A model generated the notes under the pieces. The model was not told where the DNA came from. It saw only the letters and a list, made by a program, of their open reading frames with translations, and ran no database searches. The translations under genes were made by a program, and so were the position numbers. From Candidatus Woesebacteria bacterium GW2011_GWA1_39_21 (lineage in GTDB: Bacteria; Patescibacteriota; Microgenomatia; UBA8517): a stretch of DNA of 64,000 nt. The stretch lies in NCBI GenBank assembly GCA_000993685.1, contig LBWP01000002.1, forward strand, positions 7,993 to 71,992, written 5' to 3'. The number at the start of each line of letters is the position of its first letter. Position 1 is the first letter of the stretch. Below are positions 11,851 through 42,416 of this stretch, piece by piece.

Positions 11851-12420
11851 TTATTGGTTTATCCTTGCCAAGTAGTCTCCGGTTGTTGTATCAACGGAAA
11901 CCTTGTCACCGGTTTTGATGAAGATTGGTGCTTGAATTTCGATTCCAGTTTCTAGTTTTACTGATTTTTTTGGAGCATTTACACGGTTTCCGGCAATTGC
12001 CTCGTGCGCTTCGGCAACTGTCAGGACAACGTTTGGTGGAATTTCTACACCAATCGCTTTGTCACCGTGCCACAAAACGACACATTTTTGATCTGTGACT
12101 AAAAAGCCGATTTTATTCTCAAGAAGTGTTAGGGGAACACTTACCTGGTCGTAAGTTCTCGGGTTCATAAAGACGGCTTCAGATGTATCGGAATATAAAA
12201 AGTGCATGTCTTTTTTAGCAACATCGGCAACCTCAACGGCTTCGTTTGATTTGTATGTAAATTCACTCGCTGCGCCGGTCGTTGCGTTTTTCATCTTGAC
12301 GCGCATGATTGGAGCACCTTTTCCCGGAGACATGAATTCGGTTTTCGTAACGTAATGCGGTGCTCCTTTATAGATTATAAAGCTCCCTTTGGTGATGTTA
12401 CCTGCGTTAATTGTTGACAT
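11851..12420 (-). CDS. efp: elongation factor P
   Basis: The N-terminus is typical of EF-P (STINAGNITKGSFIIYKGAPHYVTKTEFMSPGKGAPIMRVKMKN). The 189-aa length also fits. Confidence 0.9.
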   Translation of the reverse strand: MSTINAGNITKGSFIIYKGAPHYVTKTEFMSPGKGAPIMRVKMKNATTGAASEFTYKSNEAVEVADVAKKDMHFLYSDTSEAVFMNPRTYDQVSVPLTLLENKIGFLVTDQKCVVLWHGDKAIGVEIPPNVVLTVAEAHEAIAGNRVNAPKKSVKLETGIEIQAPIFIKTGDKVSVDTTTGDYLARINQ

Positions 12421-12552
12421 ATGTTTTTAAGATAAAAAAGTGAAAGGGTAAAAAGGTGAAAACAGAAATTCAATTCTTTACTATTACTCTTTCGCCATTT
12501 TACCTTTTTTCAAAATAAATCGCCCCATTTGAAGCGATACTGTATTGTAGCT

Positions 12553-24836: not shown

Positions 24837-25277
24837 ATGCGATGTCCTTTTTGTAGAGCGGCGAATACACAAGTTTTGGAGTCGAGAACGGTTGACGATG
24901 GCAGGTCATTACGAAGAAGACGGGAATGCTTAAAATGTAAAAAGCGTTTTACGACCTACGAAAAAGTTGGGGGATCTGCACTTTGGGTTGTCAAAAAGGA
25001 TGGTAGACGCGAGCCCTTTGATAGAGAAAAAGTAAAAAGAGGAGTTTTGCGGGCGGTTGAAAAAAGACCGGTTTCGATGGACTTTGTTAACGATTTGGTG
25101 GACCGGGTCGAGCGAGAAATGATGCGCAAGGAAAAAGAGGAGGTCTCAAGTAAGGCAATCGGTAAATCAGTGCTTAAGCGACTGAAAAGAATAGATAAAG
25201 TAGCGTGGTTGCGATTTGCAAGCGTCTATTTGCAATTTGAGGATTTGGAAGATTTCGCCAAAGCAATTAAGGAATAA
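24837..25277 (+). CDS. nrdR: transcriptional repressor NrdR
   Basis: An N-terminal zinc ribbon is present (MRCPFCRAANTQVLESR...CLKCKKRFTTYE). An ATP-cone domain follows. Confidence 0.9.
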   Translation: MRCPFCRAANTQVLESRTVDDGRSLRRRRECLKCKKRFTTYEKVGGSALWVVKKDGRREPFDREKVKRGVLRAVEKRPVSMDFVNDLVDRVEREMMRKEKEEVSSKAIGKSVLKRLKRIDKVAWLRFASVYLQFEDLEDFAKAIKE

Positions 25278-25324
25278 ATTTACAGCAACAAAGTTAAGAT
25301 GTGGTTTCGTAAATTACAATACTT

Positions 25325-27733
25325 ATGAAGGCAACAGAGTTTGATTACACTACCAAAACGCAATTGTCAGGAATAAGACAGAAACTATTTCTTGATCGTT
25401 ATTCGTTAAAAAACGAGAATGGTGAGCCGATCGAAAAATACCCTGAACATATGTGGAAGCGAGTGGCAGAGGCTTTGGCGGCAGTTGAAAAAACTTCAAA
25501 ATTGCGAAAAGTATGGGCGGATAAGTTTTATACATCAATGTTGGAATTCAAACTTTGTCCGGCGGGAAGATTTTTGACTTCAGCTGGGACAGGTACTGAT
25601 ACGACGATGATCAACTGTTATGTTCTTCCAAATCCTGAAGACACAAGAACGGGAATTATCAAAACTTTAGAATATGTTACGGAAATTTCTGCAAGAGGTG
25701 GTGGGGTTGGCTTTAATCTTTCGTCGCTGCGTCCCAGGGGTTCCTATCTAAAATCTGTTAATGGGACATCGTCGGGTGCGGTCTCTTGGGCAAATCTCTA
25801 TTCTGTGGCGGCACACGACATTATTCAACAGGGTGGAACAAGGCGGGGAGCTTTGATGTTGATGCTTTGGGATTGGCACCCCGATGTTGAGGAATTTATT
25901 ACCGTTAAAAGGGAGCAGGGGAAAATTCTTGGCGCCAATTTAAGCGTTTGTGTTTCCGACGAATTTATGAAGGCGTTAAAGGAAGATAAAGATTGGGATC
26001 TAAAGTTTCCAGATACAGATTTTGAAAAGTATCGCAGTGACTGGCATGGTGACATTAAGGGTTGGGAAAAGAAAGGTTATCCGGTCAAAGTTTATAAAAC
26101 GATCAGGGCTGTTGAGCTTTGGAATTTAATCTGTGATTCCGCTTGGGCGTCGGCAGAGCCGGGTATTGTCTTTTTGGATTTAGGAAATAGGATGAATAAC
26201 ACTTGGTATTTTGAAGAAAACATTTCAACAAATCCCTGCGGTGAACAACACTTGCCCGCGTGGGGCGTTTGCAATTTAAGCTCAATCAATTTATCGACTT
26301 TGGTTAAAGACGGGACGTTTGATTTCGACGAGTTTGGAAAAGTTATAAGAGTCGGCGTCAGATTTTTAGATAATGCTGTTGATACGGAGAACTATTTATA
26401 TTCGGAAATTAAAGAAGTACAGGAGAAAGAAAGAAGAATTGGTTTGGGAACTATCGGGCTAGCAGACGCACTGATTAAAATGAAGATTCGTTACGGTTCG
26501 CAAGAGTCTCACGCCTTTATTGAAAAGACCTTTAAGATGCTTCGTGATGTCGCATACGAGGAATCGATTTCTTTGGCAAAAGAGAAGGGCTCCTTCCCAC
26601 AGTTTATCGCAAATAAGTTTTTGTACAGCGGTTTTATAAAAACTTTGCCGAAAAGCATCAAGGACGGGATCAAAAAGTGGGGGATAAGAAACGCTTTAGT
26701 TTTAACCGAGGCGCCGACAGGTAAAATTTCTCTTTTGGCGGGTGCGTCGTCAGGCATTGAACCTGTCTTTTCGTTTTCTTACACCCAAAAAGATCGTTTG
26801 GGCGAAAGAACAATGTATCATCCTTTGTATCAAGAATGGGTCGATAAACATCCGGATGAGAAAATTCCTGATTATTTTGTTACAGCAGACGATCTGTCGC
26901 CTGAAGAACATATTAACGTTCAAGCCTTAATTCAAAAATACACGGATTCGTCGATTAGTAAAACGGTGAACGCCCCAAAGACACACTCGGTTTCTGATGT
27001 TAAAAAACTCTACCTTTTAGCCTATGAGAAAGGGTGTAAAGGTATTTCCTATATGCGCGAGGGTTCGCGTGAGGGGACGCTTGTTCGAGGTAGTAGCGAG
27101 GCGAAAAAAGAAACTGAAGAAGCAAAGAAAACTGAAGAGCAAAAAGCCAGTGTTTGGGTTAGACCAATTAAAATATCTGGATCCACCTATAGGTTAAAGA
27201 CCCCTGTGGGAACAGCTTTTATTACTGTAAATCATGACGAAACAGACTCTCCTGTTGAGACTTTCATTAACATCGGACGCGCCGGAAGCGATGTCCAAGC
27301 AATGGCGGAGGCGCTGGGTCGCGTGATTTCAAAGTCGTTGAAAATGGGAAGTAATTTGACAGGTAAAGAGAGGGCGATTTTAATGATCGAACAACTTCAG
27401 GGAATTGGTGGTTCAAGAAGTGTTGGTTTTGGTGCCGAACGAATTCTTTCACTCCCCGATGCAATCGCCAAAGCACTTTCTTTAGATATGGGACTTTTGC
27501 CACAGAAGCAAATGGAGATTCCTGTTCAGGAAAAATTGTTAAGCAATGGCCACACTAATGGTGTAGTTCACACGAACGGAGAGGTTGCCATATCTGAAAG
27601 CGTTGAAGATTCTGGAGACCAACTGTCGTTTTTGGCGAAGCATGCCGACTTTTGCCCGTCGTGTGGAAATGCCACGCTCGTTCACGAGATGGGTTGTAAA
27701 ACTTGCCATGGGTGTGGCTATTCTGAATGTTGA
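25325..27733 (+). CDS. nrdJ: class II (adenosylcobalamin-dependent) ribonucleotide reductase, no ATP-cone
   Basis: The active-site motif is NPCGEQHLPAWGVCNLSSINL. A C-terminal CxxC...CxxC zinc ribbon is present (CPSCGN...CKTCHGCGYSEC). Confidence 0.85.
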   Translation: MKATEFDYTTKTQLSGIRQKLFLDRYSLKNENGEPIEKYPEHMWKRVAEALAAVEKTSKLRKVWADKFYTSMLEFKLCPAGRFLTSAGTGTDTTMINCYVLPNPEDTRTGIIKTLEYVTEISARGGGVGFNLSSLRPRGSYLKSVNGTSSGAVSWANLYSVAAHDIIQQGGTRRGALMLMLWDWHPDVEEFITVKREQGKILGANLSVCVSDEFMKALKEDKDWDLKFPDTDFEKYRSDWHGDIKGWEKKGYPVKVYKTIRAVELWNLICDSAWASAEPGIVFLDLGNRMNNTWYFEENISTNPCGEQHLPAWGVCNLSSINLSTLVKDGTFDFDEFGKVIRVGVRFLDNAVDTENYLYSEIKEVQEKERRIGLGTIGLADALIKMKIRYGSQESHAFIEKTFKMLRDVAYEESISLAKEKGSFPQFIANKFLYSGFIKTLPKSIKDGIKKWGIRNALVLTEAPTGKISLLAGASSGIEPVFSFSYTQKDRLGERTMYHPLYQEWVDKHPDEKIPDYFVTADDLSPEEHINVQALIQKYTDSSISKTVNAPKTHSVSDVKKLYLLAYEKGCKGISYMREGSREGTLVRGSSEAKKETEEAKKTEEQKASVWVRPIKISGSTYRLKTPVGTAFITVNHDETDSPVETFINIGRAGSDVQAMAEALGRVISKSLKMGSNLTGKERAILMIEQLQGIGGSRSVGFGAERILSLPDAIAKALSLDMGLLPQKQMEIPVQEKLLSNGHTNGVVHTNGEVAISESVEDSGDQLSFLAKHADFCPSCGNATLVHEMGCKTCHGCGYSEC

Positions 27734-27742
27734 TATTTAAAA

Positions 27743-30064
27743 ATGAAAATTAGAAACGGCAAGGAACCAAAGACTAATATTTTTTCTCCAAAGTTAACCA
27801 ACAAACAAATTGCCTTAAAACCGGTAAAGTTTGAACTATATCGAAACAGAATCGGTAATTTGGATCTGTTGGTTACCAACGTTATCAAATCTTCGGGTAA
27901 GAAGGAACCTTTCAATCTGGAAAAAATCGAAAGAAGTATTTATTTTGCAGGAAGAGATACCGATGCTTATGGGAAAAAAGAAGCGCGAGAAATTTTGAAA
28001 AAGGTTTACATTGTACTTTCTCAAGTAAAGAGAAAGGTTATCACAACGGAAGGTGTTCGTCGGATAGTTGAGCCGATAATTGCCCAAGCGGGATACTTTG
28101 AAACAGCAAAATACTACATTCTCTTTAAAGAGCGCAAAGAGCAGTCGAAAAAAAGTGATTTCAAAATTTGGGAGCCAAAAATGACGGAAAATGCAAAAAC
28201 GGCCCTTGTTTCCCGTTGTGCGAAATTGGACGATGGTGGAAAGCCTTGTGAGACACCGGGACAAATTTTTTGGAGGGTGGCGAAACACATTGCAAAAGCC
28301 GAAATCAATTGGGGAGATGAAAGGGATGTGGATAAGGTTGCGCAAACTTTTTTCAAAAAGATGGTGGATTTTAAATTTATCTGCACGACGAGTGCAATGT
28401 ATGAAGCGGGTAACGAAGCTTGTATGCAGCAGTTGTCTCCCTGTTTTGTTTTAAAGATCGAAGACTCAATACCCAAGATTTTTCAGACACTCGGTGAGGC
28501 GGCGCTTATTCAAAAGAATTTTGGCGGAACGGGTTTTAATTTCAGTCAGATCAGATTTAGAGGCGACAAAGTGAGAAACGTTCCCAAAGCTGCCTCGGGA
28601 CCAGTTGATTTTTTACAAGTATATAGCGCTGCCTTGTCAAAAATTATGCAGGGATCCAAAAAGCACGGCGGAAATATGGGGATACTAAATATTGATCATC
28701 CGGACGTTGAAGAATTTATCAAGGTTAAAGACGAAGACGGTAATATGAAGAATTTTAATATTTCCGTTGGTGCAACGAATGAGTTTATGGATGCAGTTAT
28801 TGCGGACAAGAAATTTTCCCTAAAAAACCCGCGCGACGACAGTGTTGTTAAAAGTATTTCGGCCAAAAAACTGTTTCATGAAATTTGTGAGCATGCTTGG
28901 AAAACGGGAGATCCGGGAATGATATTTTTAGATCGGATGGAGGAGGATAATTATACCCCGACACTTGGTGTTCTAAACGCGACCAATCCTTGTGGTGAGC
29001 AACCGCTTCTTCCCTACGAATCGTGCAATCTCTCTTCGCTTCACCTGGCGAACCATCTCGTTAAAAAGAATGGTAAGTGGGAGGTTGATTGGGATGATTT
29101 GGGCGAGACGGTAAAGACACTCGTTCTCTTTTTGGACAATATGATTGAAACGAACAAGTATGTTTTACCGGAAACGGAGAAAATGGTCAAATACGGAAAT
29201 AGAAAAATTGGACTTGGCGTAATTGGTTTTGGTGAAACTCTTTTTAAACTCGGTATTGCCTATAATGGCCCTGAAGGTGTGAGAATTGCCGATAAAGTGG
29301 CAAAATTTATTAAAGCAAAGGCTGAAGAAGCTTCGCTCGAATTGGCCAGGGTCCGTGGAGTTTTCCCCAATTGGGATATTTCAACTTATAAAGGTACGGC
29401 AGAAAAATATAGAAATTGTACAATGATGACGATTGCCCCAACAGGAACGGTTTCGATGATTGGTGACACTACGTCAGGTATTGAGCCGTCTTTTGCTTTG
29501 GTTTATGTACGCCATTCGTTTTACAACGAAGATAAAAATAATAATTCCACAAGGCAGCTTTACTATGTTGATAAAAATTTTGAAAAGGTCTTGTTAGACA
29601 GGGGTGTATATTCGAAAGGGCTGATCCAAAAAGTAGCAGAGAATCATGGGTCGGTGCATGATTTGAAGGAAATTCCGAGTGAAATTCGTAAGGTATTTGT
29701 GACGACTCACGACATTCACCCGCAATGGCATGTTAAGATTCAAGCAGCTTTTCAAAAATATACCGACAATGCGGTTTCAAAGACAATTAATTTTTCCAAC
29801 GACGCCACAATTTCCGACATTGAAGATGCGTACATGTTAGCCTGGAAATTGGGATGTAAGGGAATAACAATTTATCGTGACGGGAGCAAGGAGGATCAGG
29901 TCTTGAATGCCGGGAGTGTAAAAGTTGCCGGTGAGAAGGTAAAAACAGCGGAATCAGAAGCTGAATTTGCGGAAAAAGAGTGTCCGGAATGTAGTGGGGT
30001 CTTGGAGTTTGAGGGTGGATGCGTAAGTTGCAAAGAATGTGGTTGGAGCGAATGTAAACTTTGA
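27743..30064 (+). CDS. nrdJ: class II ribonucleotide reductase with N-terminal ATP-cone (paralog 2)
   Basis: The ATP-cone sequence is LLVTNVIKSSGKKEPFNLEKIERSIYFAG. The active-site motif is NPCGEQPLLPYESCNLSSLHL. A C-terminal zinc ribbon is present (CPECSG...CVSCKECGWSEC). Confidence 0.85.
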   Translation: MKIRNGKEPKTNIFSPKLTNKQIALKPVKFELYRNRIGNLDLLVTNVIKSSGKKEPFNLEKIERSIYFAGRDTDAYGKKEAREILKKVYIVLSQVKRKVITTEGVRRIVEPIIAQAGYFETAKYYILFKERKEQSKKSDFKIWEPKMTENAKTALVSRCAKLDDGGKPCETPGQIFWRVAKHIAKAEINWGDERDVDKVAQTFFKKMVDFKFICTTSAMYEAGNEACMQQLSPCFVLKIEDSIPKIFQTLGEAALIQKNFGGTGFNFSQIRFRGDKVRNVPKAASGPVDFLQVYSAALSKIMQGSKKHGGNMGILNIDHPDVEEFIKVKDEDGNMKNFNISVGATNEFMDAVIADKKFSLKNPRDDSVVKSISAKKLFHEICEHAWKTGDPGMIFLDRMEEDNYTPTLGVLNATNPCGEQPLLPYESCNLSSLHLANHLVKKNGKWEVDWDDLGETVKTLVLFLDNMIETNKYVLPETEKMVKYGNRKIGLGVIGFGETLFKLGIAYNGPEGVRIADKVAKFIKAKAEEASLELARVRGVFPNWDISTYKGTAEKYRNCTMMTIAPTGTVSMIGDTTSGIEPSFALVYVRHSFYNEDKNNNSTRQLYYVDKNFEKVLLDRGVYSKGLIQKVAENHGSVHDLKEIPSEIRKVFVTTHDIHPQWHVKIQAAFQKYTDNAVSKTINFSNDATISDIEDAYMLAWKLGCKGITIYRDGSKEDQVLNAGSVKVAGEKVKTAESEAEFAEKECPECSGVLEFEGGCVSCKECGWSECKL

Positions 30065-30085
30065 CCGAATAAAACCAATCCTGTT

Positions 30086-32227
30086 ATGAAAAAAACAAAA
30101 CAAGTTATCAAAGCTAATGGTAATTTTCAGGAATTCGACACTGAAAAAATTTACAAAAGTATTTGGTTGGCTGCGCAAAATGTCGGTGGAAAGGATGATA
30201 AAACTGCGGTATTGCTTAAAAATGAAGTCGTTGCTGTACTCACAGAGAAATATCCAAATGGGGAGTACATCAAAACTTCGGAGATTGGCGAGATTGTCGA
30301 AAAGGTTCTGATTGAACACGGACATGCAAAAACAGCAAAAGAATTCATCCGCTTTCGGGAAAATAAAAAGCACTATCGTCAGGACAAAGAAAGCCTTGGG
30401 ATTAAAGACGATATCGGTTTGGGTTACAACACGCTGTATATTTTAAAGGAACGTTACCTTAAAAGAGACGAAAAGGGAAAGATTATTGAGACACCAAAGG
30501 GAATGTTTAAGCGGGTGGCAAAGTTTTTGGCAAGTGTTGAAAAGACAAAAGCACTTCGTGATAAATGGTATGAAAAATTTTATGACGTCATGGTTAAATT
30601 TGAGTTTCAACCGGGAACTAGACCGCTGGCCAACGCTGGAAAAAAAGAAGCACAACTTGGAAATTGTTTTGTCTGGCCGCTGAATGATGACATCAATCAT
30701 ATCTTTAAAATCCTGCACGAGTCGACTCTGATTAAAAAGCACGGTGGGGGGTGTGGTTATAACTTTTCCAATTTACGACCCGAGGGAGATGCTGTCGGTG
30801 GGATTCCAGATCTTGCGGCGGGCCCGGTCAAAATAATTGAAATGTTTGATTTAATGACCTCGCTTTTCAGACAAGAGGGAAAATACGAAAGCGGAAACAT
30901 GGCTGTTTTAAATGCCAACCACGCAGACATCTTTAATTTTATTTCCGCAAAACAAACTGACGGACATCTCTCAAAAACGAACATTTCTGTCGGTATTACG
31001 GATGAATTCATGAACGCAGCCCTTGAGGGAAAAGATTGGAAACTGATTAACCCAAGAAACGGTGAGGTGGTTAATGTTGTTAAGGCAAAATCGGTTCTTG
31101 AACTGATGGCGGCGATGGCCTGGCAAACCGGTGACCCGGGAATTCTTAATCTTTCTGCGATTAACAAGGGAAACCAATTTGGAAATCCGCTTTTGAAAAA
31201 GTGCGGACCGATAATGTCAACAAATGTTTGTGGAGAAATTCCACAGTACCCATACGAGTCCTGCAATTTGGGTTACGTCAACTTTACCAAATTTATAAAA
31301 GGTAAATCGTTTGATTTTGCGCATTTAAAAGAGGTGGTGGCAATTGCAGTCAGGTTGATGGACAACGTCATTTCCGCATCGTGGTTTCCAGTTCCCGAGG
31401 TTACAAAATCAGTGCAAGACCATCGAAGAATTGGAATTGGCTGTGTTGGTTGGGCGGAAACTTTAGCGAGGCTTGAAATTCCCTATGACAGTGAAGAAGC
31501 TTATGAGCTGGCGGAAAAAGTTACAAGGGCGATGTATCAATCCGCTTTTGTAACATCGGCCAAACTTGCCAAAGAAAAGGGGCCTTTTCCCCTTATATCT
31601 GATTCGATTTGGGCAAATAAAAAAGATAAACCACGAAACGTTGCGCTTTTGACTTTTCCGCCGTCTAGTGGAAATGCTGTCATTGCCGAAACAACTTTTG
31701 GTATTGAACCATACTTTGCTTTGGCCTATGAGCAAAATGTTCTTGGGGGAATGAGGCTTCGGACAATCATTCCGTATTTTGTCGAGAAATTAAAGGAAAG
31801 AGGAATTTATTCAGAAGAGCTAGTTCAAAAAGTTATCGACAATCATGGAAGTATTCAGGCACTTTCCGAAATCCCAGCCGATTTAAAAAAGATCTTCAAA
31901 GTTGCTCACGATATCCGGTGGCGGGATCATATCAAAATGCAGGCGGCTTTCCAAAAATGGACCGATAACGCAATCACAAAAACGATCAACATGCCCTCAA
32001 GTGCGACTCCAAACGATATTGAAGAAGCATACACTTTGGCTTGGAAATTGGGGTGCAAGGGACTGACGGTTTACCGTGATCGAACGAAAAAAGATCAGGT
32101 CTTTGAATTTGGAAAATCGGAGAATGACGTCATTTCTGTCAAGTGTCCCAATTGTGAAGCGCTGCTTACTAAGGAAAGAAAATGCTACAAATGTAAGAAG
32201 TGTGGATATTCGACGTGTGAAATTTGA
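30086..32227 (+). CDS. nrdJ: class II ribonucleotide reductase with N-terminal ATP-cone (paralog 3)
   Basis: The ATP-cone sequence is KQVIKANGNFQEFDTEKIYKSIWLAAQ. The active-site motif is TNVCGEIPQYPYESCNLGYVNF. A C-terminal zinc ribbon is present (CPNCEA...CYKCKKCGYSTC). Confidence 0.85.
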   Translation: MKKTKQVIKANGNFQEFDTEKIYKSIWLAAQNVGGKDDKTAVLLKNEVVAVLTEKYPNGEYIKTSEIGEIVEKVLIEHGHAKTAKEFIRFRENKKHYRQDKESLGIKDDIGLGYNTLYILKERYLKRDEKGKIIETPKGMFKRVAKFLASVEKTKALRDKWYEKFYDVMVKFEFQPGTRPLANAGKKEAQLGNCFVWPLNDDINHIFKILHESTLIKKHGGGCGYNFSNLRPEGDAVGGIPDLAAGPVKIIEMFDLMTSLFRQEGKYESGNMAVLNANHADIFNFISAKQTDGHLSKTNISVGITDEFMNAALEGKDWKLINPRNGEVVNVVKAKSVLELMAAMAWQTGDPGILNLSAINKGNQFGNPLLKKCGPIMSTNVCGEIPQYPYESCNLGYVNFTKFIKGKSFDFAHLKEVVAIAVRLMDNVISASWFPVPEVTKSVQDHRRIGIGCVGWAETLARLEIPYDSEEAYELAEKVTRAMYQSAFVTSAKLAKEKGPFPLISDSIWANKKDKPRNVALLTFPPSSGNAVIAETTFGIEPYFALAYEQNVLGGMRLRTIIPYFVEKLKERGIYSEELVQKVIDNHGSIQALSEIPADLKKIFKVAHDIRWRDHIKMQAAFQKWTDNAITKTINMPSSATPNDIEEAYTLAWKLGCKGLTVYRDRTKKDQVFEFGKSENDVISVKCPNCEALLTKERKCYKCKKCGYSTCEI

Positions 32228-32265
32228 ATTGATAAAGTTTCTACTCCCCCATATACTTCAAGAAA

Positions 32266-32802
32266 ATGACAATCTACACGAAAAAGGGCGATAAGGGTAA
32301 GACAGGACTATTTAAGAAGGTTAACGGTAAATCGGTGCGTGTTTCAAAATCTTCTTGTAACACCCGAGCAATTGGCGCGATTGACGAGGTTGACAGTTTT
32401 ATCGGTGTTGTCATTTCGCTCTCGCACGATGAGTATCTGAAGGAGAGGTTGCATCAAGTTCAAAACAATTTATTAACAACCGGTTCAATTCTCGCCGGTT
32501 CTGATTTAAAAATTCAACCGAGCGAAACAAAAAAGCTCGAAAAAGAAATCGACGAATGCGATAAATTTCTTCCCGCACTAACCAATTTTATTTTTCCGGG
32601 AGGGAGTCCGATCGCAGCTTATTTACAATACGCAAGAACACTGGCAAGAAAAGCGGAGCGGGAAGTGGTTGCGCTAAATGAAGAAACTCGCATATCGGCT
32701 TCAATATTAAAATATATCAACCGTCTTTCGGACTATCTTTTTACCCTGGCAAGAGTGGAGAATTTTAAATTGAAAGTCAAAGACGAAGTCTGGAAGAAAT
32801 AG
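32266..32802 (+). CDS. pduO: PduO-type ATP:cob(I)alamin adenosyltransferase
   Basis: The N-terminal signature is MTIYTKKGDKGKTGLF. The 178-aa length fits this family. It lies immediately downstream of the B12-dependent RNRs. Confidence 0.8.
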   Translation: MTIYTKKGDKGKTGLFKKVNGKSVRVSKSSCNTRAIGAIDEVDSFIGVVISLSHDEYLKERLHQVQNNLLTTGSILAGSDLKIQPSETKKLEKEIDECDKFLPALTNFIFPGGSPIAAYLQYARTLARKAEREVVALNEETRISASILKYINRLSDYLFTLARVENFKLKVKDEVWKK

Positions 32803-32851: not shown

Positions 32852-33208
32852 ATGCCTGATGTGGAAAGAGAAAATGTTACTTCTGTACAGCCGTTGGTGA
32901 AAGAACGTCCGACAGACATGGAAATTCCACCGGAGTTGGAGCGTGGAGGAGTAGCTCAGGCGGTACCAAGTCAATTTAAAGGCCAGGTTAACGACGATTT
33001 CGGGAAACCCCTAATTCAGACACCACCAGCTTCGGCGGTAACAATTCAGGTTCCGGCTTCACAACAACAATTGGAAGGCTGGTCAAAAGGCGATCCTGAA
33101 AACGCTCTGACTTGGTTTGCGGTTTTTTGGATTCGATTGATTAAAAAGGCACTTCATTTTAGTTGGCGAATGGTTAAAAAAATTACAGGAGGTGAGCCAA
33201 ATGTATAG
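32852..33208 (+). CDS. hypothetical small protein with C-terminal hydrophobic helix
   Basis: The protein is Pro/Gln-rich and ends with a TM-like segment (LTWFAVFWIRLIKKAL). It overlaps the start of the ATPase gene. Confidence 0.3.
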   Translation: MPDVERENVTSVQPLVKERPTDMEIPPELERGGVAQAVPSQFKGQVNDDFGKPLIQTPPASAVTIQVPASQQQLEGWSKGDPENALTWFAVFWIRLIKKALHFSWRMVKKITGGEPNV

Positions 33209-35525
33209 TGAAGTCGAGGTTGCGATGATATTGTTACTAGTATTCTCTCTTTTTATTTTTGTTGTGGCTGTTGCAGTATTTTTTATTGTTACTCAAATTA
33301 AACACAGAAATCGTGAGGAGGAATCGATTGACTCAGTACTACTGCAAGTTGCAGTTCACAAAAATAACGAAATAAAAATTGATGCGATGGAACAGCTTTT
33401 TTCGGCTTTGTATTCAATCAAGGGGGGTGGTTGGAAGCAAAAATACAAAACACAACCGATATTGTCGTTTGAAATTGTTGCAAAAAAAGAGGACATCAGA
33501 TTTTACGTCTGGACGCCGAAGAAGTTTAAGGACATGATCGAAAAACAAATTCACGGTGCATACCCTGACGCAGAGGTAATAGAAGTTCAGGAATATAACA
33601 TTTTTACAGAAGAGGGGAAGGTTGCCTACAAATGCCTGCAATTGGCACGGGACAATTTTTATCCGATTAAGACTTTTAAGGAGTTGCCAACAGATCCTAT
33701 GTCGGTTATTACTTCAGCACTTGCCAAGATGGGAGATGGTGAAGCGGCAGCAATCCAGATTTTGATTTCTCCTGCTGATAGCACCTGGAGCAAACAGGGA
33801 ACGTCTTTCATCTCCGCTACCAAAAAGCAGGAAGCTGATCCGGAAAAGGCAAAGTTTTCCGTTCCGGCAAAAACACTGGAAGCGGTGGAAAATAAAGTTA
33901 CCAAATCGGGCTTTGATACGTCAGTTCGAATTGTCGTTGTGTCGAAAGATAAAGAATCGGCAAAATCGCATCTTTCGAACATTTCCAGTTCTTTCGCCCA
34001 GTTTAATGGAGATCTTAACTATCTCAAAAGCCGCGTGATCCGACAGAAGGGTGCATTTATTGAGGATTTTATTTACAGGTACCATCCAATGTTCCACGTC
34101 TTCGGCAATAAAAAATCAATTCTGAGTGTTGAGGAATTGGCGTCAATTTATCATTTTCCTAATAAAGCTATTACCACACCGCACATTAAATGGGTTTATT
34201 CGAAAACAGCTCCGGCACCTTCCGCAATTCCCGAATCCGGTATCTATTTGGGAGTAAGTTCTTATCAGGGAACAAAACGTCCAGTCTACATTTCTGATGA
34301 GGATCGGATGCGCCACATGTACATTGTCGGAAAAACCGGTGTCGGGAAGTCGGAGTTTTTAAAAGACCTAGTAATTCAAGATATTAGAAACGGTCAAGGA
34401 GTTTGTTTTATTGATCCGCACGGTGATGCGGTGGAAGATTTGTTGAACCTTATTCCTCCCGAGCGGGCAGAGGACGTAATTTACTTTAATCCTTCGGATT
34501 CCGAGCGGCCGATAGGACTTAACTTATTGGAAGCCAATACGGAAGATCAAAAACATTTTGCAGCCACAGCTGTGATTAATATGATGTACAAGCTTTTTGA
34601 TCCTTACAAAACGGGTATTGTCGGCCCACGTTTCGAACACGCTGTCAGAAATGCAATGCTTACGGCAATGAGTGATGAAGGTTCGACTTTTGTTGAAGTG
34701 ATGCGAATTTTAACCGACTCGCGTTATGTGCAAGAACTTCTTCCAAAAGTTACCGACCCGATAGTGAGGCGGTATTGGACAGATCAAATTGCACAGACCT
34801 CCGACTTTCATAAATCCGAAGTTTTGGATTACATCACCTCAAAATTCGGGCGCTTTGTCACAAACAGAATGATTAGAAATATTATCGGCCAATCTGAATC
34901 GTCTTTCTCGTTGCGTAGAGTTATGGACGAAGGGAAAATTCTATTTATTAATTTATCAAAGGGAACAATCGGTGAGGAAAACTCCAGCTTTTTGGGGCTC
35001 ATTTTGGTTCCAAGAATACTAATGGCGGCGATGAGTAGGACTGATGTTCCAAAGGAACAAAGACGCCCTTTTTATCTTTATGTTGACGAGTTTCAGAATT
35101 TTGCCACGCCGGACTTCGCAGTAATTTTATCCGAGGCGAGAAAATATGCACTGGCACTTTGTGTGGCGAATCAGTTTATCGGGCAAGTTGAGGAAGAAGT
35201 CAAAAATGCGGTTTTTGGTAACGTTGGAACAATTGTTTCTTTCCGAATTGGAACCACCGATGCTAATTATCTGCAGCACGAATTCGCTCCGGTTTTTGCT
35301 GAGGACGACCTATTAAATATCGAGAAATATCACGTCTACATTAAAACGACCGTCAACAACGAACCTGTACCTCCATTTTCAATGGACTTATTCCGTGATA
35401 TGGACAAGTTGAAGGCGATGGAAAATCCTAAAGTTGCCGGAATCATCAAAGAAATGAGCCGTCTTAACTACGGGCGTGACTTAAAACTGGTCGAGGCAGA
35501 AATCGCGCGAAGAGCAAAACTGTAA
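33192..35525 (+). CDS. membrane-anchored HerA/VirB4/VirD4-superfamily P-loop ATPase (type IV coupling-protein-like)
   Basis: An N-terminal TM helix is present. Walker A is GKTGVGKSEF. The sequence CFIDPHGD is a DPxGE-like motif. Walker B is FYLYVDEFQNF. Confidence 0.55.
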   Translation: MSQMYSEVEVAMILLLVFSLFIFVVAVAVFFIVTQIKHRNREEESIDSVLLQVAVHKNNEIKIDAMEQLFSALYSIKGGGWKQKYKTQPILSFEIVAKKEDIRFYVWTPKKFKDMIEKQIHGAYPDAEVIEVQEYNIFTEEGKVAYKCLQLARDNFYPIKTFKELPTDPMSVITSALAKMGDGEAAAIQILISPADSTWSKQGTSFISATKKQEADPEKAKFSVPAKTLEAVENKVTKSGFDTSVRIVVVSKDKESAKSHLSNISSSFAQFNGDLNYLKSRVIRQKGAFIEDFIYRYHPMFHVFGNKKSILSVEELASIYHFPNKAITTPHIKWVYSKTAPAPSAIPESGIYLGVSSYQGTKRPVYISDEDRMRHMYIVGKTGVGKSEFLKDLVIQDIRNGQGVCFIDPHGDAVEDLLNLIPPERAEDVIYFNPSDSERPIGLNLLEANTEDQKHFAATAVINMMYKLFDPYKTGIVGPRFEHAVRNAMLTAMSDEGSTFVEVMRILTDSRYVQELLPKVTDPIVRRYWTDQIAQTSDFHKSEVLDYITSKFGRFVTNRMIRNIIGQSESSFSLRRVMDEGKILFINLSKGTIGEENSSFLGLILVPRILMAAMSRTDVPKEQRRPFYLYVDEFQNFATPDFAVILSEARKYALALCVANQFIGQVEEEVKNAVFGNVGTIVSFRIGTTDANYLQHEFAPVFAEDDLLNIEKYHVYIKTTVNNEPVPPFSMDLFRDMDKLKAMENPKVAGIIKEMSRLNYGRDLKLVEAEIARRAKL

Positions 35526-35603
35526 TAGTTTTGTTTAAAAGACGGGTGGATACTTCGTGGAGAATGGGAAATTAGTTAGCTTCTTGGTATAATTACCTCA
35601 CTT

Positions 35604-35679
35604 GGCCTGGTAACTCAGTGGTTAGAGTGCCATTCTTATAAAATGGAAGTCGATGGTTCGAACCCATCCCAGGCCACCA
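35604..35679 (+). tRNA. tRNA-Ile (anticodon UAU), CCA encoded
   Basis: I hand-folded a cloverleaf. The acceptor pairs ggcctgg/ccaggcc. The D-stem pairs actc/gagt. The anticodon stem pairs ccatt/aatgg around loop cttataa, giving anticodon UAU at positions 34-36. The T-arm pairs gatgg/ccatc with loop ttcgaac. The 3' end is ACCA. Confidence 0.75.
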
Positions 35680-35725
35680 ATATTCTTACATGTCAAAACG
35701 AGGTTTTGTCATAAAGTCGATGTAC

Positions 35726-35756
35726 TTGGTTCGACTCCAAGCGGCTCCACCAAATT
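35726..35756 (+). other. orphan tRNA 3' fragment (T-arm plus 3' acceptor strand plus CCA; tRNA-Ala/tmRNA-like end GCUCCACCA)
   Basis: Sequence cttgg-ttcgact-ccaag-cggctcc-a-cca is present. No complementary 5' acceptor strand lies upstream. It is preceded by a 10-bp inverted repeat (atgtcaaaac-gag-gttttgtcat). Confidence 0.4.
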
Positions 35757-36022
35757 TTGATATGTCGAAGCTCTGCTTCGTCATAAAATCGAATTGGTCG
35801 TATCTATATAATCTTCAAGAAATATATAATGATTTAGTATTACCACCGATCGGATTTTTATTTTTTTGTAATATGGTTGGCATTTTGGGGAGTTTATAAT
35901 TTCTTTCTCTTGCCTAAAAAAATCTCTACAGAAAAATCACCTCGACTTTTGTCATTGACTTTTTATCTCTCACCCTAATTGACTTTTGTCTGTCTCGATT
36001 AATTTACACCAGAGAAGTTTCC

Positions 36023-36435: not shown

Positions 36436-37299
36436 TTAAAGTTCAACCAGTTCTTGTTTTTTTCCGGGTTGGGTTATCTCTGCGAGTGTGAGGTAGCGCT
36501 CAGTTGTAGAAAGCCTCTTGTGCCCTGATACTTGTGAGAGAAAGACAAGATCGACACCGGTTTTGAGGTTTTGGACAACGAAAGTTGTTCTTAAATCGTT
36601 AACAGTGTAACCTGGAATTTCTGCTTTCTGAAAGTATCTGTCGATTGCTGCTCTGATATTCCTTATTGCCAGCGGTTTTCCATTTTTGCTCACGAAAATA
36701 TATGGAGAATCTGACTTTGGCCGTTCATTAAGATATTTTTCCAACGTTAGTTTGGCTGACGAATTTAAGGGAATATCTCTTGATGCTTGAGTCGCATATG
36801 CATCAACGTGGACGGTTGCGTTTTTGATGTTTTCTTTCTTAAGCGCGGCAACTTCAGATATCCGTAGCCCGGTTTGGAGAATTAATTCTACGATTGCTGC
36901 AACTCTTGTGTCGTTTCTGACAACGTCGCGCAGAGCACGGTACTCAATTGCTGAAAGAAATTTTGGTGTTGAAGCTTCGATTTTGGGGTGGGAAACTGGG
37001 GAAGAGGGATCGCGTGAGGTGATTTTCTCATCCATGAGAAATCTGAAAAAGGTTTTAACGGCATTCAGTTTTCTTGAAACTGACTTTGGTGTATATTTTT
37101 GGGATAGCAGTTGATCACGAAAACCTTCAACATCGGTGGATTCGACAAGATCAGGCATCACTTTGTTCTTGCCGGTTAAATAGTCGACTAACTGTTCTAA
37201 ATCTGCTCTATAGGCTAGAATTGTTGAAGGCGATCTATTTTTATCTTTTAGGTTTTGGATAAATTTTGGCAGAAGATTTTTTAAGGTATCTTGTGGCAT
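36436..37299 (-). CDS. XerC/XerD-family site-specific tyrosine recombinase
   Basis: The N-terminal core-binding domain is TILAYRADLEQLVDYL. Catalytic box residues are present (GLRISEV; SGHKRLSTTERYLTL). The 287-aa length is typical of Xer rather than phage integrases. Confidence 0.75.
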   Translation of the reverse strand: MPQDTLKNLLPKFIQNLKDKNRSPSTILAYRADLEQLVDYLTGKNKVMPDLVESTDVEGFRDQLLSQKYTPKSVSRKLNAVKTFFRFLMDEKITSRDPSSPVSHPKIEASTPKFLSAIEYRALRDVVRNDTRVAAIVELILQTGLRISEVAALKKENIKNATVHVDAYATQASRDIPLNSSAKLTLEKYLNERPKSDSPYIFVSKNGKPLAIRNIRAAIDRYFQKAEIPGYTVNDLRTTFVVQNLKTGVDLVFLSQVSGHKRLSTTERYLTLAEITQPGKKQELVEL

Positions 37300-38575: not shown

Positions 38576-39013
38576 GGCCGCAATTATAACATTGGATCAA
38601 AAGCAGAACAAATTATTGGAAAACATTGAAGCGTTATTATTTCCGTTTATTGTTGCGGGGTCAGGAGTTGGACCTGATCTGGAAGATTATGCACCTTCTT
38701 GTGTTACCACAAGGGTAGGACTATATCATCATCCCGGCTTTAATCGGGAGTTTGGCGTGTAGTCTCTACGGAGTCCAAAATAAAATATTTTAATTTTAAA
38801 AAGGTTCCCTCGGTATTGTCCTGACATAATCAGGGTGTCCACCGATATAGCCAAATTCTCATTTATAATTACTCATAAATGGGCCCATTTCTACTAGCCT
38901 TCCGTGCAGCCGTACACTACCCCGCATGTCAACGAACAAACCATATTATATTTACTTTATACTGTGAAAGCAACATGGAATTGTACCTGCGTGAATAGTA
39001 TAATATTACTTGA

Positions 39014-39694
39014 ATGGCAAAATTTGCACAAAAAATAGAAGCCAGAAAATTGAGAAGAAAAGGTCAAAGTATAAAAGGAATTGCAAAATCACTTAATGTT
39101 TCTCCAGCTTCAGTAAGTGAATGGTGTCATGATATCAGTCTTACTGTTAACCAGATAAAGATTTTAGAACTACACTCAAGGGATCCTTCTTATGGTAGAA
39201 GATTAACTTATTCATTAAAACAGAAGCAACAAAGGGTAGAAAAAACAAAAAGGTTAATGGAAGAAGGAAAAAAAGATGTTGGAATTTTAAGTGAACGCGA
39301 ACTTTTTATAGCTGGGATTGCTCTATATTGGGCTGAAGGGTTTAAGAAAGATAGTCAAGCTGGTTTGGCAAACCTTGATCCTTACATGATTAAATTTTTT
39401 ATTAGGTGGTTGAATGAATGTTTTCACTATCATGTTGACAATCTCATTTTGAGAGTAACTGTAAATATAAGTCATAAAGAGAGAATTAACGAGATTGAGG
39501 GATATTGGTCTACGGTTACAGGATTTCCTGTAGATAAATTTCAAAAACCTTTTTTTCAGAAGGTTTTGTGGAAAAAAGTATATGAGAACCCCAATGACTA
39601 TCATGGAATATTAAGAGTAAAAGTTAGGAAAAGCGTCGATTTTTTGAGAAGACTAAATGGTTGTATTGAAGGTTTGAGAATGACTACAGATTAA
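39014..39694 (+). CDS. HTH-domain DNA-binding protein of unknown function
   Basis: An N-terminal resolvase/psq-like HTH is present (KGQSIKGIAKSLNVSPASVSEW). The C-terminal ~150 aa has an IAGIALYWAEGF segment. It lies immediately upstream of the tRNA cluster. Confidence 0.4.
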   Translation: MAKFAQKIEARKLRRKGQSIKGIAKSLNVSPASVSEWCHDISLTVNQIKILELHSRDPSYGRRLTYSLKQKQQRVEKTKRLMEEGKKDVGILSERELFIAGIALYWAEGFKKDSQAGLANLDPYMIKFFIRWLNECFHYHVDNLILRVTVNISHKERINEIEGYWSTVTGFPVDKFQKPFFQKVLWKKVYENPNDYHGILRVKVRKSVDFLRRLNGCIEGLRMTTD

Positions 39695-39798: not shown

Positions 39799-39835
39799 GC
39801 CAACGTAGCTCAGCGGTAGAGCAATCGTTTCATAA
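39799..39835 (+). other. truncated 5' copy of tRNA(CAU) (acceptor 5' strand, D-arm, anticodon stem 5' side and loop)
   Basis: Sequence gccaacgtagctcagcggtagagcaatcgtttcataa parallels the first 37 nt of the intact tRNA 11 nt downstream. It then diverges, with no 3' half. Confidence 0.45.
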
Positions 39836-39846
39836 CACAAACATTT

Positions 39847-39918
39847 GCCAAGGTAGCTCAGTGGAAGAGCACGCGTTTCATAAGCGCGGTGTCGAGAGTT
39901 CGATCCTCTCCCTTGGCA
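39847..39918 (+). tRNA. tRNA-Met or Ile2 (anticodon CAU), CCA not encoded
   Basis: I hand-folded a cloverleaf. The acceptor pairs gccaagg/ccttggc. The D-stem pairs gctc/gagc. The anticodon stem pairs cgcgt/gcgcg around loop ttcataa, giving anticodon CAU. The T-arm pairs gagag/ctctc with loop ttcgatc. Confidence 0.75.
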
Positions 39919-40090
39919 CAACAATTTTGAGACATATCAGAATTTTCTGCCATAAACCCGCGGTCGTGGGAGAGTAACCAATTTGTCTTAGGCGGGCGAA
40001 TTGTCGATTCCCACCTCTGGCGCCAGTTTTATCTCCCAAAATGCTTCAAGCCATTTCTCTTTAGTAATTTATTAAGATATAATTCGCTGC

Positions 40091-40971: not shown

Positions 40972-42027
40972 ATGAAAAAACGAATATTATCAGGAATTAG
41001 AGCCACCGGCAGGCTTCATTTGGGAAATTATCTTGGAATGATTAAAGGAATGCTTACTCTTCAAGATGATCCCGAGTATGAAGTTTTCTTCATGGTCGCA
41101 GATTTGCACGCACTAACGACTCCGTTTGATCCGAAAACGTTGGGACCAAACTCCAGAGACGTTGTTTTGGACTATCTTGGCGCAGGTCTTGATCCGGAAA
41201 AAGCGTCGGTTTTTATCCAATCGCACGTTCGAGAACACGTCGAACTTTCCTATCTGTTTTCGACTGAAGTGACAATTGCGAGGTTGGGTCACTTACCAAC
41301 CTACAAAGACAAGCTTAAACAGTTTCCGGAAAATAATACCTTGGCGCTTTTGTACTACCCGGTTTTAATGGCTGCAGATATTTTGCTTTATAAAACGGAA
41401 CTTCTTCCGGTCGGGGATGACCAGCTGCCACATCTTGAGATCTCTCGCGAAATTGCAAGAAAGTTTAATGAAAAATACGGGATGGATTTCCCGGAGCCGG
41501 GACAAATTAAAACAGAAGGACATTACGTTCCATCGCTAACGGGAGAAGGAAAGATGAGTAAGTCGGTAGAAGGGAGTTACATTAATCTGACTGACGATTT
41601 GACGACAATTAAGGAAAAGTTGGCAATAGTTCCGACAGACTCTGGAAAAGGTAAAATCGAAACTCAAAACTCAAATGTCAAAAGTCAAAATGACAACTCA
41701 AAACTCAAAATTTATAAATCTGGAGGAATCGAGTCGAAGGGGATATCTGCATTAATGGCACTGGTAGACTTATTTGAAGGTGAAGAAAAAAGAAAAGAAT
41801 ATGAAGAGAAATATTTGGGAGAGGGTGTTCGGTACGGTAATTTGAAAAATGAACTAGCTGAAGAAATTTATAAAGAACTTGAGCCGATTCAAGCGCGAAG
41901 GAAAAAGTACGAAGACGATCCGGATTTGGTAGAGAAAATCTTAAAAGACGGTGCCGAAAAAGCTCGAAAAATCGCCAAGGAAACAGCCAGAAGATTTGGA
42001 AGGAAAACAGCTTCCTTTTGTTATTAA
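40972..42027 (+). CDS. trpS: tryptophanyl-tRNA synthetase
   Basis: The HIGH motif reads GRLHLGNY. KMSKS is present. It carries an in-frame insertion KIETQNSNVKSQNDNSKLKIY encoded by a repeat also found in the polA-like gene. Confidence 0.9.
   Translation: MKKRILSGIRATGRLHLGNYLGMIKGMLTLQDDPEYEVFFMVADLHALTTPFDPKTLGPNSRDVVLDYLGAGLDPEKASVFIQSHVREHVELSYLFSTEVTIARLGHLPTYKDKLKQFPENNTLALLYYPVLMAADILLYKTELLPVGDDQLPHLEISREIARKFNEKYGMDFPEPGQIKTEGHYVPSLTGEGKMSKSVEGSYINLTDDLTTIKEKLAIVPTDSGKGKIETQNSNVKSQNDNSKLKIYKSGGIESKGISALMALVDLFEGEEKRKEYEEKYLGEGVRYGNLKNELAEEIYKELEPIQARRKKYEDDPDLVEKILKDGAEKARKIAKETARRFGRKTASFCY
41662..41712 (+). repeat. in-frame ~51 nt repeat copy A (inside trpS)
   Basis: Sequence aactcaaaactcaaatgtcaaaagtcaaaatgacaactcaaaactcaaaatt shares 33 nt of exact identity with 46201-46252. 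It contains the tgtca/tgaca inverted repeat. Confidence 0.8.
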
Positions 42028-42416
42028 TCTGGAAAAAAAGAAAATCGGCCTGGAGGGTGATCATTCTGAAGGGATGATGTTAATGGCTGTGGCGTCAAAA
42101 AAGGAAATGGGGCAGGATCCGGTAAAGGTTGGCGAGGAAGAAGTTGACGAGTATCCAATTTTGTTCGACCTTCCCGAGAAAGTTTCAAACGGAACAAGAG
42201 TAATGTAGGGAATTTGAGTTTACGCGTAAGAGGAAGGAAGTGGAAAATTTCTTTGTATTCTCCATACTTATACTTCCTACAACAACGAATTCTTACATGT
42301 TATAATTCAGCTTGTTTACAGGGAGACTTGTTACTTTACGTAAACGGGTGGAAGTGTTTTGTGGTAAGATAACTGCTACTTCTGTCTCAGGCAGAGATTA
42401 GGTTTCCAAAAATATT

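Follow-up and report, generated by a model that had tools for sequence, protein, structure and literature searches.

A tRNA-Ile with an encoded UAU anticodon in the Woesebacteria/Microgenomates clade and half-tRNA genes nested around it

We describe a tRNA-Ile gene with a genomically encoded UAU anticodon in Candidatus Woesebacteria bacterium GW2011_GWA1_39_21, a member of the Candidate Phyla Radiation (CPR; Patescibacteria) from Rifle groundwater with a genome of roughly 1 Mb. The DNA that we analysed, called the window below, is a stretch of 64,000 nucleotides from contig LBWP01000002.1. From the sequence of this gene and of its relatives we think it likely that it encodes a functional, chromosomally inherited minor tRNA-Ile that is charged by isoleucyl-tRNA synthetase (IleRS), reads AUA and is fixed in the clade. 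It would stem from the tRNA-Ile2 lineage, which has a CAU anticodon and lysidine in most bacteria. Discrimination between AUA and AUG is thought to depend nearly universally in bacteria on one essential enzyme, TilS, and a UAU tRNA-Ile fixed across this large, deep-branching radiation of ultra-small bacteria would turn a scattered exception into a lineage-wide alternative. The most surprising feature of the locus is a set of nested insertions into the anticodon, by which an essential single-copy tRNA gene appears to have been overwritten repeatedly at one phosphodiester.

The tRNA-Ile(UAU) gene and its conservation

35604-35679, forward strand: tRNA-Ile(UAU), 76 nt with encoded CCA (ARAGORN, anticodon tat at position 34)
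35585-35593, forward strand: extended -10 promoter element TGGTATAAT, read from the sequence, ending 10 nt before the tRNA gene

A first-pass annotation of this DNA had read a tRNA with anticodon UAU here, and ARAGORN and Rfam concur at exactly the same coordinates. ARAGORN calls two tRNAs in the window, this gene and a tRNA-Met. The Rfam tRNA model RF00005 matches 35604-35676 over the full model with 70.5 bits (gathering score 29, E = 2e-13). The canonical cloverleaf that had been folded by hand, with 7/4/5-bp stems, a TTCGAAC T-loop and an encoded CCA, matches our direct reading of the sequence in every detail. The acceptor stem is GGCCTGG/CCAGGCC (7 bp), the D stem ACTC/GAGT (4 bp) and the anticodon stem CCATT/AATGG (5 bp) with the loop C-U-UAU-A-A, and the T arm is GATGG-TTCGAAC-CCATC. 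The anticodon TAT lies at 35637-35639 and the discriminator A at 35676. ARAGORN agrees on the register with TAT at 34-36, and the full-length, high-scoring calls are not those of a pseudogene. The gene thus has what a decoder needs at the level of sequence: a 7-nt anticodon loop with U33, U34-A35-U36 and A37 in a canonical cloverleaf.

To compare relatives, we scanned one genome per GTDB species with the FtsH protein of the window. This gave 80 loci from Woesebacteria and other Microgenomates, with an FtsH identity of 65-83% to that of the window; numbered L-labels (such as L008) refer to these loci. Many of them are mislabelled 'Gammaproteobacteria' by third-party submissions. In 49 of the 80 loci ARAGORN called a tRNA-Ile(tat), which lies 2.2-9.8 kb ahead of ftsH. 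Where the upstream flank reaches 9 kb or more, the gene is present in 45 of 50 loci, with a median distance to ftsH of 4.7 kb.

We aligned 44 distinct orthologues over 21 stem pairs, or 924 pair cells, of which 99.7% are standard pairs. Both sides of the pair changed in a compensatory way at 19 of the 21 pairs. None of 500 shuffles matched the observed covariation values, and controls with slid partners paired only 20-50% of the time. C32, U33, U34, A35, U36, A37 and A73 are invariant in all 44 sequences. Among the 50 UAU orthologues A73 is present in every one and A38 in at least 90%, and U12 is invariant and paired with A23 or G23. Judged from sequence, isoleucine identity (A73, A37, A38 and a U12:A23-type pair) is present. 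The strong constraint on the stems together with the invariant anticodon loop indicates a functional gene with a fixed UAU anticodon. A chance fold is out, as the gene is identical in JGI and ENA assemblies made independently from the same population, and compensatory changes occur in 49 other species-level genomes.

The annotation was therefore right that this is a genuine tRNA-Ile with an encoded UAU, whose orthologues are under strong purifying selection across the clade. It had also called such a tRNA rare, which is true of bacteria generally (a 2026 preprint still speaks of 'rare cases') but not of this lineage, where the tRNA is the rule. These sequences point to tRNA-Ile(UAU) as a fixed trait of the Woesebacteria/Microgenomates clade and as a clade-wide addition to the bacterial tRNA-Ile(UAU) class already known.

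AUA is isoleucine in these genomes and is not avoided. In 56 non-overlapping open reading frames (ORFs) of the window it accounts for 251 of 17,880 codons, a frequency of 14.0 per 1000 that counts as 'high' by the scale in PMC12514573; among the Ile codons its share is 18.9%. The usage check proposed with the annotation thus found a common codon, used as isoleucine. The genome was described there as AT-rich; since G+C is about 40%, it is only moderately so. Across 81 FtsH orthologues, at positions where one sequence has ATA the others have ATT or ATC in 51% of cases and Met in 2.5%, and Val or Leu makes up most of what is left. Fifteen columns are Ile in at least 90% of the sequences, and 21.5% of their codons are ATA; the 10 columns that are at least 90% Met hold two ATA codons.

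These numbers bear on the reading that the gene is a pseudogene, that its anticodon is mis-registered, or that AUA is reassigned (for example to Met) so that the tRNA is not one for isoleucine. The general rarity of bacterial UAU tRNAs speaks for it, and nothing further does. Two tools give full-length, high-scoring calls, the covariation is near perfect with an invariant anticodon and flanking bases, A73, A37 and A38 fit Ile identity, and ATA aligns with ATT/ATC and not with ATG. We regard this reading as negligible.

The gene would be transcribed from the extended -10 promoter that ends 10 nt upstream. A TGnTAnAAT element lies no more than 30 nt upstream of the tRNA in 29 of the 50 orthologous loci (about 0.005 expected per site) and no more than 200 nt upstream in 44 of them. 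There is no -35 hexamer upstream of tRNA-Ile(UAU), and a consensus promoter scanner missed the TGGTATAAT element for this reason.

The gene order common to the relatives is a TrwB/DUF8128-like ATPase, tRNA-Ile(UAU), a Xer-like recombinase, an initiator-like tRNA, tRNA-Met, trpS and ftsH. In the window, the neighbours of the tRNA-Ile in this order are as follows.

33192-35525, forward strand: TrwB/TraD-like coupling ATPase (DUF8128), directly upstream of tRNA-Ile(UAU) (Pfam and NCBIfam matches)
36436-37299, reverse strand: Xer-type tyrosine recombinase, downstream of tRNA-Ile(UAU) (Pfam Phage_integrase and SAM-like domains)
38653-38926, reverse strand: initiator-like tRNA(CAU), interrupted (exons read by eye)
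38692-38895, reverse strand: group I intron of 204 nt between U33 and C34 of that tRNA (Rfam Intron_gpI, 75 bits)
39847-39918, forward strand: elongator-type tRNA-Met(CAU), intact (ARAGORN; Rfam 64.8 bits)

AUA decoding and the lysidine route

We used acceptor-stem positions 3:70, 4:69 and 5:68 to assign the three tRNA families of the cluster. Silva et al. 2006 (PMC1635315) found that G3 or A3 with C70 or U70 is absent from bacterial tRNA-Met and tRNA-fMet and is a mark of tRNA-Ile(CAU), a class in which C4:G69 and C5:G68 are also frequent. The UAU family has G3 or A3 in 45 of 50 members, C4:G69 in 28 (56%), C5:G68 in 32 (64%) and A73 in all, and no C34 variant is found among these 50 orthologues. 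The elongator CAU family has G1:C72, C3:G70 in 69 of 70 and never C4:G69, and is nearest to E. coli metT in 63 of 70. The initiator CAU family is invariant for U1:A72, G2:C71 and C3:G70, and E. coli metV is nearest in 47 of 47. These two families supply the only CAU tRNAs nearby. By these discriminators, the cluster appears to be made up of fMet, Met and an Ile2-type tRNA whose anticodon is UAU and not CAU. Raw identity to E. coli reference tRNAs was tried as a classifier and set aside; it clearly separated the initiator, but Met from Ile2 only weakly.

As a family, the UAU tRNAs mostly carry the acceptor-stem features of the minor tRNA-Ile2, and from its sequences the family looks like the orthologue of the CAU gene and not like an addition to it. 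The arrangement of the cluster fits what would be expected if the tRNA-Ile2 gene of this lineage underwent the C34-to-U change that has been proposed for Mycoplasma mobile (PMC3575796).

Following the M. mobile precedent (PMC3575796), decoding may work like this. An IleRS that has adapted to U34 and accepts it would charge the tRNA, A37 would carry t6A, and AUA codons would be read through a Watson-Crick U34:A pair. Three things would limit misreading of AUG: the state of U34 (unmodified or specially modified), discrimination on the ribosome, and the adjacent, conserved tRNA-Met as a competitor.

The alternative with most to be said for it is that the tRNA is functional but redundant. In that case, tilS and a tRNA-Ile2(CAU) would be kept elsewhere, AUA would be read by two tRNAs, and no other way of discriminating AUA from AUG would be needed. 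Dual systems are documented, as in Lactobacillus casei and Cyanothece (PMC3575796), TilS occurs in about 98% of bacteria (PMC6063277, PMC12514573), and the part of the roughly 1-Mb genome that is visible to us amounts to about 84 kb. On the other side, 45 of the 50 well-flanked relatives keep the tRNA with an invariant U34 though 19 of the 21 stem pairs diverge, and a redundant gene would be expected to drop out sporadically. The UAU tRNA itself bears acceptor features of the tRNA-Ile2 class, and no C34 variant occurs among the 50 orthologues. The absence of TilS from 1.58 Mb of Woesebacteria DNA points the same way, weakly. We consider redundancy unlikely, though it deserves to be taken seriously.

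Our searches for TilS and IleRS covered the 84 kb of the source genome (the window and its extensions) and about 20 kb per relative, which is a few per cent of each genome. With E. coli TilS as query, phmmer found no TilS among all ORFs of the window, the extensions and the 80 relatives' loci (1.58 Mb), a result that is uninformative for whole genomes. A search of the ORFs of the window and relatives for the SGGxDS PP-loop motif returned only one NadE-like protein, and PF01171 is absent from the Pfam lists of the 10-kb extensions on either side of the window. A database search that started from E. coli TilS gave enterobacterial proteins throughout its best 120 of 8000 candidates; without a CPR seed, such a search cannot reach CPR proteins. 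No IleRS was found in the window, the extensions or the relatives' loci, all of which are partial sequences of their genomes. An IleRS adapted to U34 would be expected either to have Arg or Lys where a Trp otherwise stacks on base 34 (Trp905 in E. coli, aligned with Arg865 in M. mobile) or to be of the eukaryote type. In the literature that we searched, nothing links tilS or lysidine with CPR/Patescibacteria or Woesebacteria.

Several points weigh against a UAU tRNA that has taken over AUA decoding in this clade. The near-universality of TilS, which is judged evolutionarily stable (PMC6063277), is a strong prior against its loss, and a tRNA-Ile2(CAU) and TilS may sit outside the 84 kb of the source genome that we read. 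The two systems coexist in L. casei, L. plantarum, Cyanothece PCC 7424 and Ferrimonas (PMC3575796). Five of the 50 well-flanked relatives have no tRNA-Ile(UAU) at this locus. The window copy has C3:G70 (the state of Met tRNAs), C4:G69 and U5:A68, so it shows one of the three Ile2 marks and its assignment to tRNA-Ile2 rests mainly on orthology and family. Finally, the modification state of U34, the adaptation of IleRS and expression of the gene are things that we infer.

Taking both sides together, we lean, by a little, towards a clade that lacks the lysidine route, given that nearly all relatives retain the gene, that its U34 is fixed and that its features are of the tRNA-Ile2 type. The tRNA-Ile(UAU) would then be the main and probably the only AUA decoder in the clade, with the lysidine route replaced. 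The annotation had proposed a 'different solution' to AUA/AUG discrimination, and decoding independent of TilS is plausible and in part supported; it hinges on the absence of tilS genome-wide. If the trait is as we describe, the clade would offer many natural replicates of the adaptation of IleRS and ribosomes to a U34 without protection, and the trait bears on the idea that the UAU anticodon is the ancestral decoder of AUA. It is also a warning for annotation, as a 'missing' tRNA-Ile2(CAU) in these genomes may not be missing.

Half-tRNA genes and the chromosomal setting

Directly downstream of tRNA-Ile(UAU), and around tRNA-Met, we found broken copies of the same types of tRNA.

35680-35711, forward strand: spacer unit 1, 32 nt, ATATTCTTACATGTCAAAAC-GAG-GTTTTGTCA, a hairpin (repeat D1), ending ...GTCA before the half-tRNA
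35712-35752, forward strand: 3' half of an older tRNA-Ile(UAU), from U36 to CCA (nhmmer, model positions 33-73, E = 1e-5)
35753-35783, forward strand: spacer unit 2, AATTTTGATATGTCGAAGC-TCT-GCTTCGTCA, the second D1 hairpin copy, with compensatory changes that keep the hairpin
35784 to about 35800, forward strand: short, decayed 3' remnant of a second tRNA-Ile(UAU), TAAAATCGAA... (repeat D3; end approximate)
39799-39832, forward strand: 5' half of an older elongator tRNA-Met, ending at A35 (nhmmer with a tRNA-Met model, 30.5 bits)
39953-40025, forward strand: decayed 3' half of an older tRNA-Met, starting at U36 (read from the sequence)

L014, L070 and L024 have intact tRNAs whose 3' halves match the one at 35712-35752 with 93-100% identity. 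This remnant had been considered as the 3' end of a tmRNA or as an att site and is neither, being the 3' half of another tRNA-Ile(UAU) type; neither ARAGORN nor Rfam finds a tmRNA in the window. The shorter remnant matches the 3' side of the anticodon arm of the intact gene at 91% (repeat D3) and is of the L013 type. The two copies of direct repeat D1 lie 72 nt apart with 72% identity. At the boundary between spacer and remnant, the junction reads ...G(T/C)(C/T)A and then TAA, in relatives as well.

The pattern extends to the relatives. With nhmmer we found nine 5' halves and thirteen 3' halves of tRNA-Ile(UAU) in at least 17 of the 50 loci (including L008 2355-2695, L013 5881-6265, L031 4396-4578, L042 2465-2657 and L048 2725-2909). 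All of the 5' halves end in ...T-T-A35 and all of the 3' halves begin with U36-A-A. L008 has, in this order, 5'-halves A and B, the intact tRNA C, and 3'-halves B and A. Cognate halves pair at 7 of 7 positions of the acceptor stem and 4-5 of 5 positions of the anticodon stem in six cases, and non-cognate combinations fail. The tRNA-Met gene shows the same break between 35 and 36 in eight loci (the window, L008, L010, L022, L037, L039, L069 and L070), where five 5' halves end in ...T-C-A35 and five 3' halves start with TAA. We found no half-gene remnants of this kind for the initiator-like tRNA.

Nested cognate halves that are broken at 35|36 indicate repeated insertions into a single anticodon phosphodiester, which is the centre of the palindrome TTA|TAA. 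Each insert, of about 100-190 nt, holds an intact tRNA of the type that it enters, preceded by a short leader and followed by a trailer. These two arms are complementary, with at least 10 of 14 Watson-Crick pairs in 9 of the 50 Ile genes compared with 0.5% of shuffled pairs. The ends of the inserts read 5'-T(G/A)(A/G)C ... G(T/C)(C/T)A-3'. Inserts that end in CG fix the break at 35|36 with no duplication, and overall there is no consistent duplication of the target. Each insertion thus appears to kill the resident tRNA gene and to bring a working replacement. The window has only 3' halves of tRNA-Ile, and its 5' halves would have been lost afterwards.

Three of the decayed 3' halves also carry an insert of 23-33 nt in the T-loop: that of tRNA-Met in the window (33 nt, 39971-40003, forward strand) and those at about 2654-2676 in L008 and about 4069-4095 in L025. 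These start with AGAGTAA(C/T) and continue with a hairpin whose stem sequence varies among the copies while the pairing is kept. They may relate to the 'small introns' of CPR tRNAs (bioRxiv 10.1101/2025.07.03.662931).

Our tentative proposal for the nested halves, which we would not yet bet on, is that the tRNA-Ile(UAU) and elongator tRNA-Met genes are both targets and cargo of a mobile tRNA cassette, in a lineage that may lack TilS. The cassette would be an intact tRNA gene between short complementary arms, about 100-190 nt in all. It would enter between positions 35 and 36 of a resident of the same type, as a self-compensating 'homing' tRNA gene, and successive insertions would leave nested 5' and 3' half-genes. 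The conserved Xer-type recombinase next to tRNA-Ile may act in trans on such cassettes. Cassette recombination of the Xer or integron type would call for an adjacent XerC/D-family recombinase and for short hairpin-forming cassettes with no recombinase of their own. The Xer-like gene is conserved beside tRNA-Ile, the tRNA-Met hotspot is 2.5 kb from it, and the arms are complementary; no dif- or attC-like consensus could be established.

Two other mechanisms were discarded. An IS630/mariner-type duplication of TA does not fit the junctions, which show no consistent duplication, and reciprocal recombination inside the tRNA would yield two chimeric full genes and not halves. The literature that we searched holds no description of such a tRNA-cassette mobile unit. 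A metagenome scan with the pattern TGTCATAAA-N10-13-GGTTCGA gave 120 matches, of which 119 were unrelated coding DNA and one was the same population, so that the pattern is too short; a scan of viral contigs for the CTGACATGTCAG...CTGTCATAA module gave no matches. If the cassette is a dedicated mobile unit, it would be a new route for the horizontal spread of translation genes, and the tRNA-like fragments that it leaves would be a further, new cause of error in counting tRNA genes.

The half-genes also enter into a further reading, in which a large integrated mobile element or prophage carries the tRNA as cargo, so that the gene says nothing of the host's own decoding. A TrwB/TraD-like ATPase and a tyrosine recombinase flank the tRNA, and half-tRNA remnants adjoin it. 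Both flanking genes and the tRNA are, however, syntenic in relatives with 65-83% FtsH identity and sit in a housekeeping neighbourhood, and the common gene order makes these two neighbours conserved chromosomal genes. The recombinase is Xer-like, with NCBIfam matches to XerA (153 bits), XerC (150 bits) and also XerD-like, all under the curated cut-offs, and a gene at the same position with 66-71% nucleotide identity is found in L008, L010, L013, L014, L024 and L070. It is the sole recombinase near the tRNA insertion hotspot. The remnants lie tens of nucleotides from the intact gene and are not separated from it by an element on the scale of kilobases. By megablast, the segment 33000-41000 has no match among 50,697 phage records, G+C is uniform along the window (0.37-0.43) and GC skew is uniformly positive. 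Variable presence, a kilobase-scale element with tRNA-derived repeats, and genes of a phage or integrative and conjugative element (ICE), the usual signs of a phage or island, do not describe tRNA-Ile(UAU). We consider the cargo reading very improbable.

The window is core chromosome, neither phage nor island. Its gene content is cellular and includes DnaG, sigma-70, two class A penicillin-binding proteins (PBP1), Fur, EF-P, PurA, TrpRS, FtsH, a 5'-3' exonuclease, Fpg, an ATP-dependent ligase and NrdR. The DUF8128 TrwB/TraD-like ATPase is kept beside tRNA-Ile(UAU) clade-wide, with no other conjugation genes in view. Between trpS and ftsH there is a conserved 129-aa stand-alone tRNA-binding domain protein (PF01588, Trbp111-like; about 41819-42208, forward strand). 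Many bacteria have tilS-hpt upstream of ftsH, which is the position of the PF01588 protein here.

An ORF of 226 aa (39014-39694, forward strand), also conserved in L007 and L070, separates the intron-bearing tRNA from tRNA-Met. Only a weak N-terminal helix-turn-helix of the IS630/IS3 type was recognized in it, and it could be a degenerate transposase or a DNA-binding protein tied to the tRNA hotspot.

The presumed initiator tRNA is atypical for bacteria, in that the window copy and 46 orthologues (L007-L086) have U1:A72 in place of the C1xA72 mismatch. Its D stem is GUGU/GCAC, which makes the pair at 11:24 U11:A24 and not A11:U24, and in its anticodon stem A29:U41, G30:C40 and G31.U39 replace three G:C pairs; both traits are conserved in the clade. 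The group I intron in the window copy has a U.G pair at the 5' splice site and a terminal G, as read by eye. ARAGORN calls intron-less initiator-like orthologues in 43 or more relatives. All seven of the relatives that we checked among those without such a call have a group I intron at the same 33/34 place, a site known from cyanobacterial tRNA-fMet (bioRxiv 10.1101/2025.07.03.662931).

Three other observations lie further from the tRNA genes. At 24837-32802 (forward strand), NrdR is followed by three consecutive large subunits of ribonucleotide reductase (802, 773 and 713 aa) and a cobalamin adenosyltransferase. ATP cones are present in two of the three subunits and a TSCPD domain in one, and a triplication is unusual for a genome of about 1 Mb. 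EF-P adjoins a truncated class II aminoacyl-tRNA synthetase paralogue that is EpmA/PoxA-like (11851-13611, reverse strand), and there is an ATP-dependent DNA ligase of the eukaryote/archaea type at 55193-56950 (forward strand).

Comparison with known systems

The closest known case of the decoder is the tRNA-Ile2(UAU) of M. mobile (Taniguchi et al. 2013, PMC3575796; PMC1635315), which shares the encoded UAU, A37, A73, a small genome and frequent AUA codons. The C34-to-U origin from tRNA-Ile2(CAU) proposed for it (PMC3575796) fits the Ile2-type acceptor stems in Woesebacteria. In M. mobile, however, the tRNA is a trait of one species in its genus, whereas here it is found in 45 of 50 species-level genomes of a candidate class-level lineage; in 2013, nine tilS-less species in three clades were known (PMC3575796). 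The absence of tilS, an unmodified U34, an IleRS change of the Arg865 type and ribosomal discrimination of AUA from AUG have been demonstrated for M. mobile; for Woesebacteria they are predictions.

Bacteria with both tilS and tRNA-Ile(TAT) (the L. casei, L. plantarum, Cyanothece PCC 7424 and Ferrimonas balearica cases; PMC3575796) have the same UAU tRNA-Ile and represent the state that would hold here if tilS is present. They are sporadic within their groups, whereas the Woesebacteria gene is conserved, syntenic and strongly constrained. Eukaryotes (with pseudouridine-A-pseudouridine), Nanoarchaeum and Korarchaeum (which is without TiaS) likewise read AUA with a U34-type anticodon and not with a modified cytidine (as cited in PMC3575796). 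They belong to other domains with other synthetase types, and the eukaryotic genes have introns and a modified U34.

For the nested insertions, we compared three kinds of known element. IS200/IS605 elements (HUH, single-strand) likewise enter just 3' of a short, fixed target and do not duplicate it. They have subterminal hairpins at each end, but the complementarity in our inserts is between the two ends and not within each end. We found no transposase domain, and so no Y1 transposase (TnpA), in the scanned ORFs and Pfam lists of the window, save for the weak IS630/IS3-type helix-turn-helix of the 226-aa ORF.

Scars of phage and ICE integrases (PMC9897764 / bioRxiv 10.1101/2022.07.05.498093) resemble the Woesebacteria loci in having a partial tRNA beside an intact one and tRNA stem-loops as targets. 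In those scars there is one partial copy, usually a 3' one, with an element of 9-120 kb between it and the intact gene. In Woesebacteria, only tens of nucleotides separate the nested 5' and 3' halves from the intact gene, all breaks are at 35|36, and the insert is essentially a tRNA gene alone with short complementary arms.

Group I introns at 35/36 of Patescibacteria tRNA-Asn and tRNA-Asp (bioRxiv 10.1101/2025.07.03.662931) come from the same phylum and use the same phosphodiester. Those introns splice themselves out and the host tRNA stays functional, whereas the Woesebacteria inserts have no intron features and appear to kill the resident tRNA and replace it.

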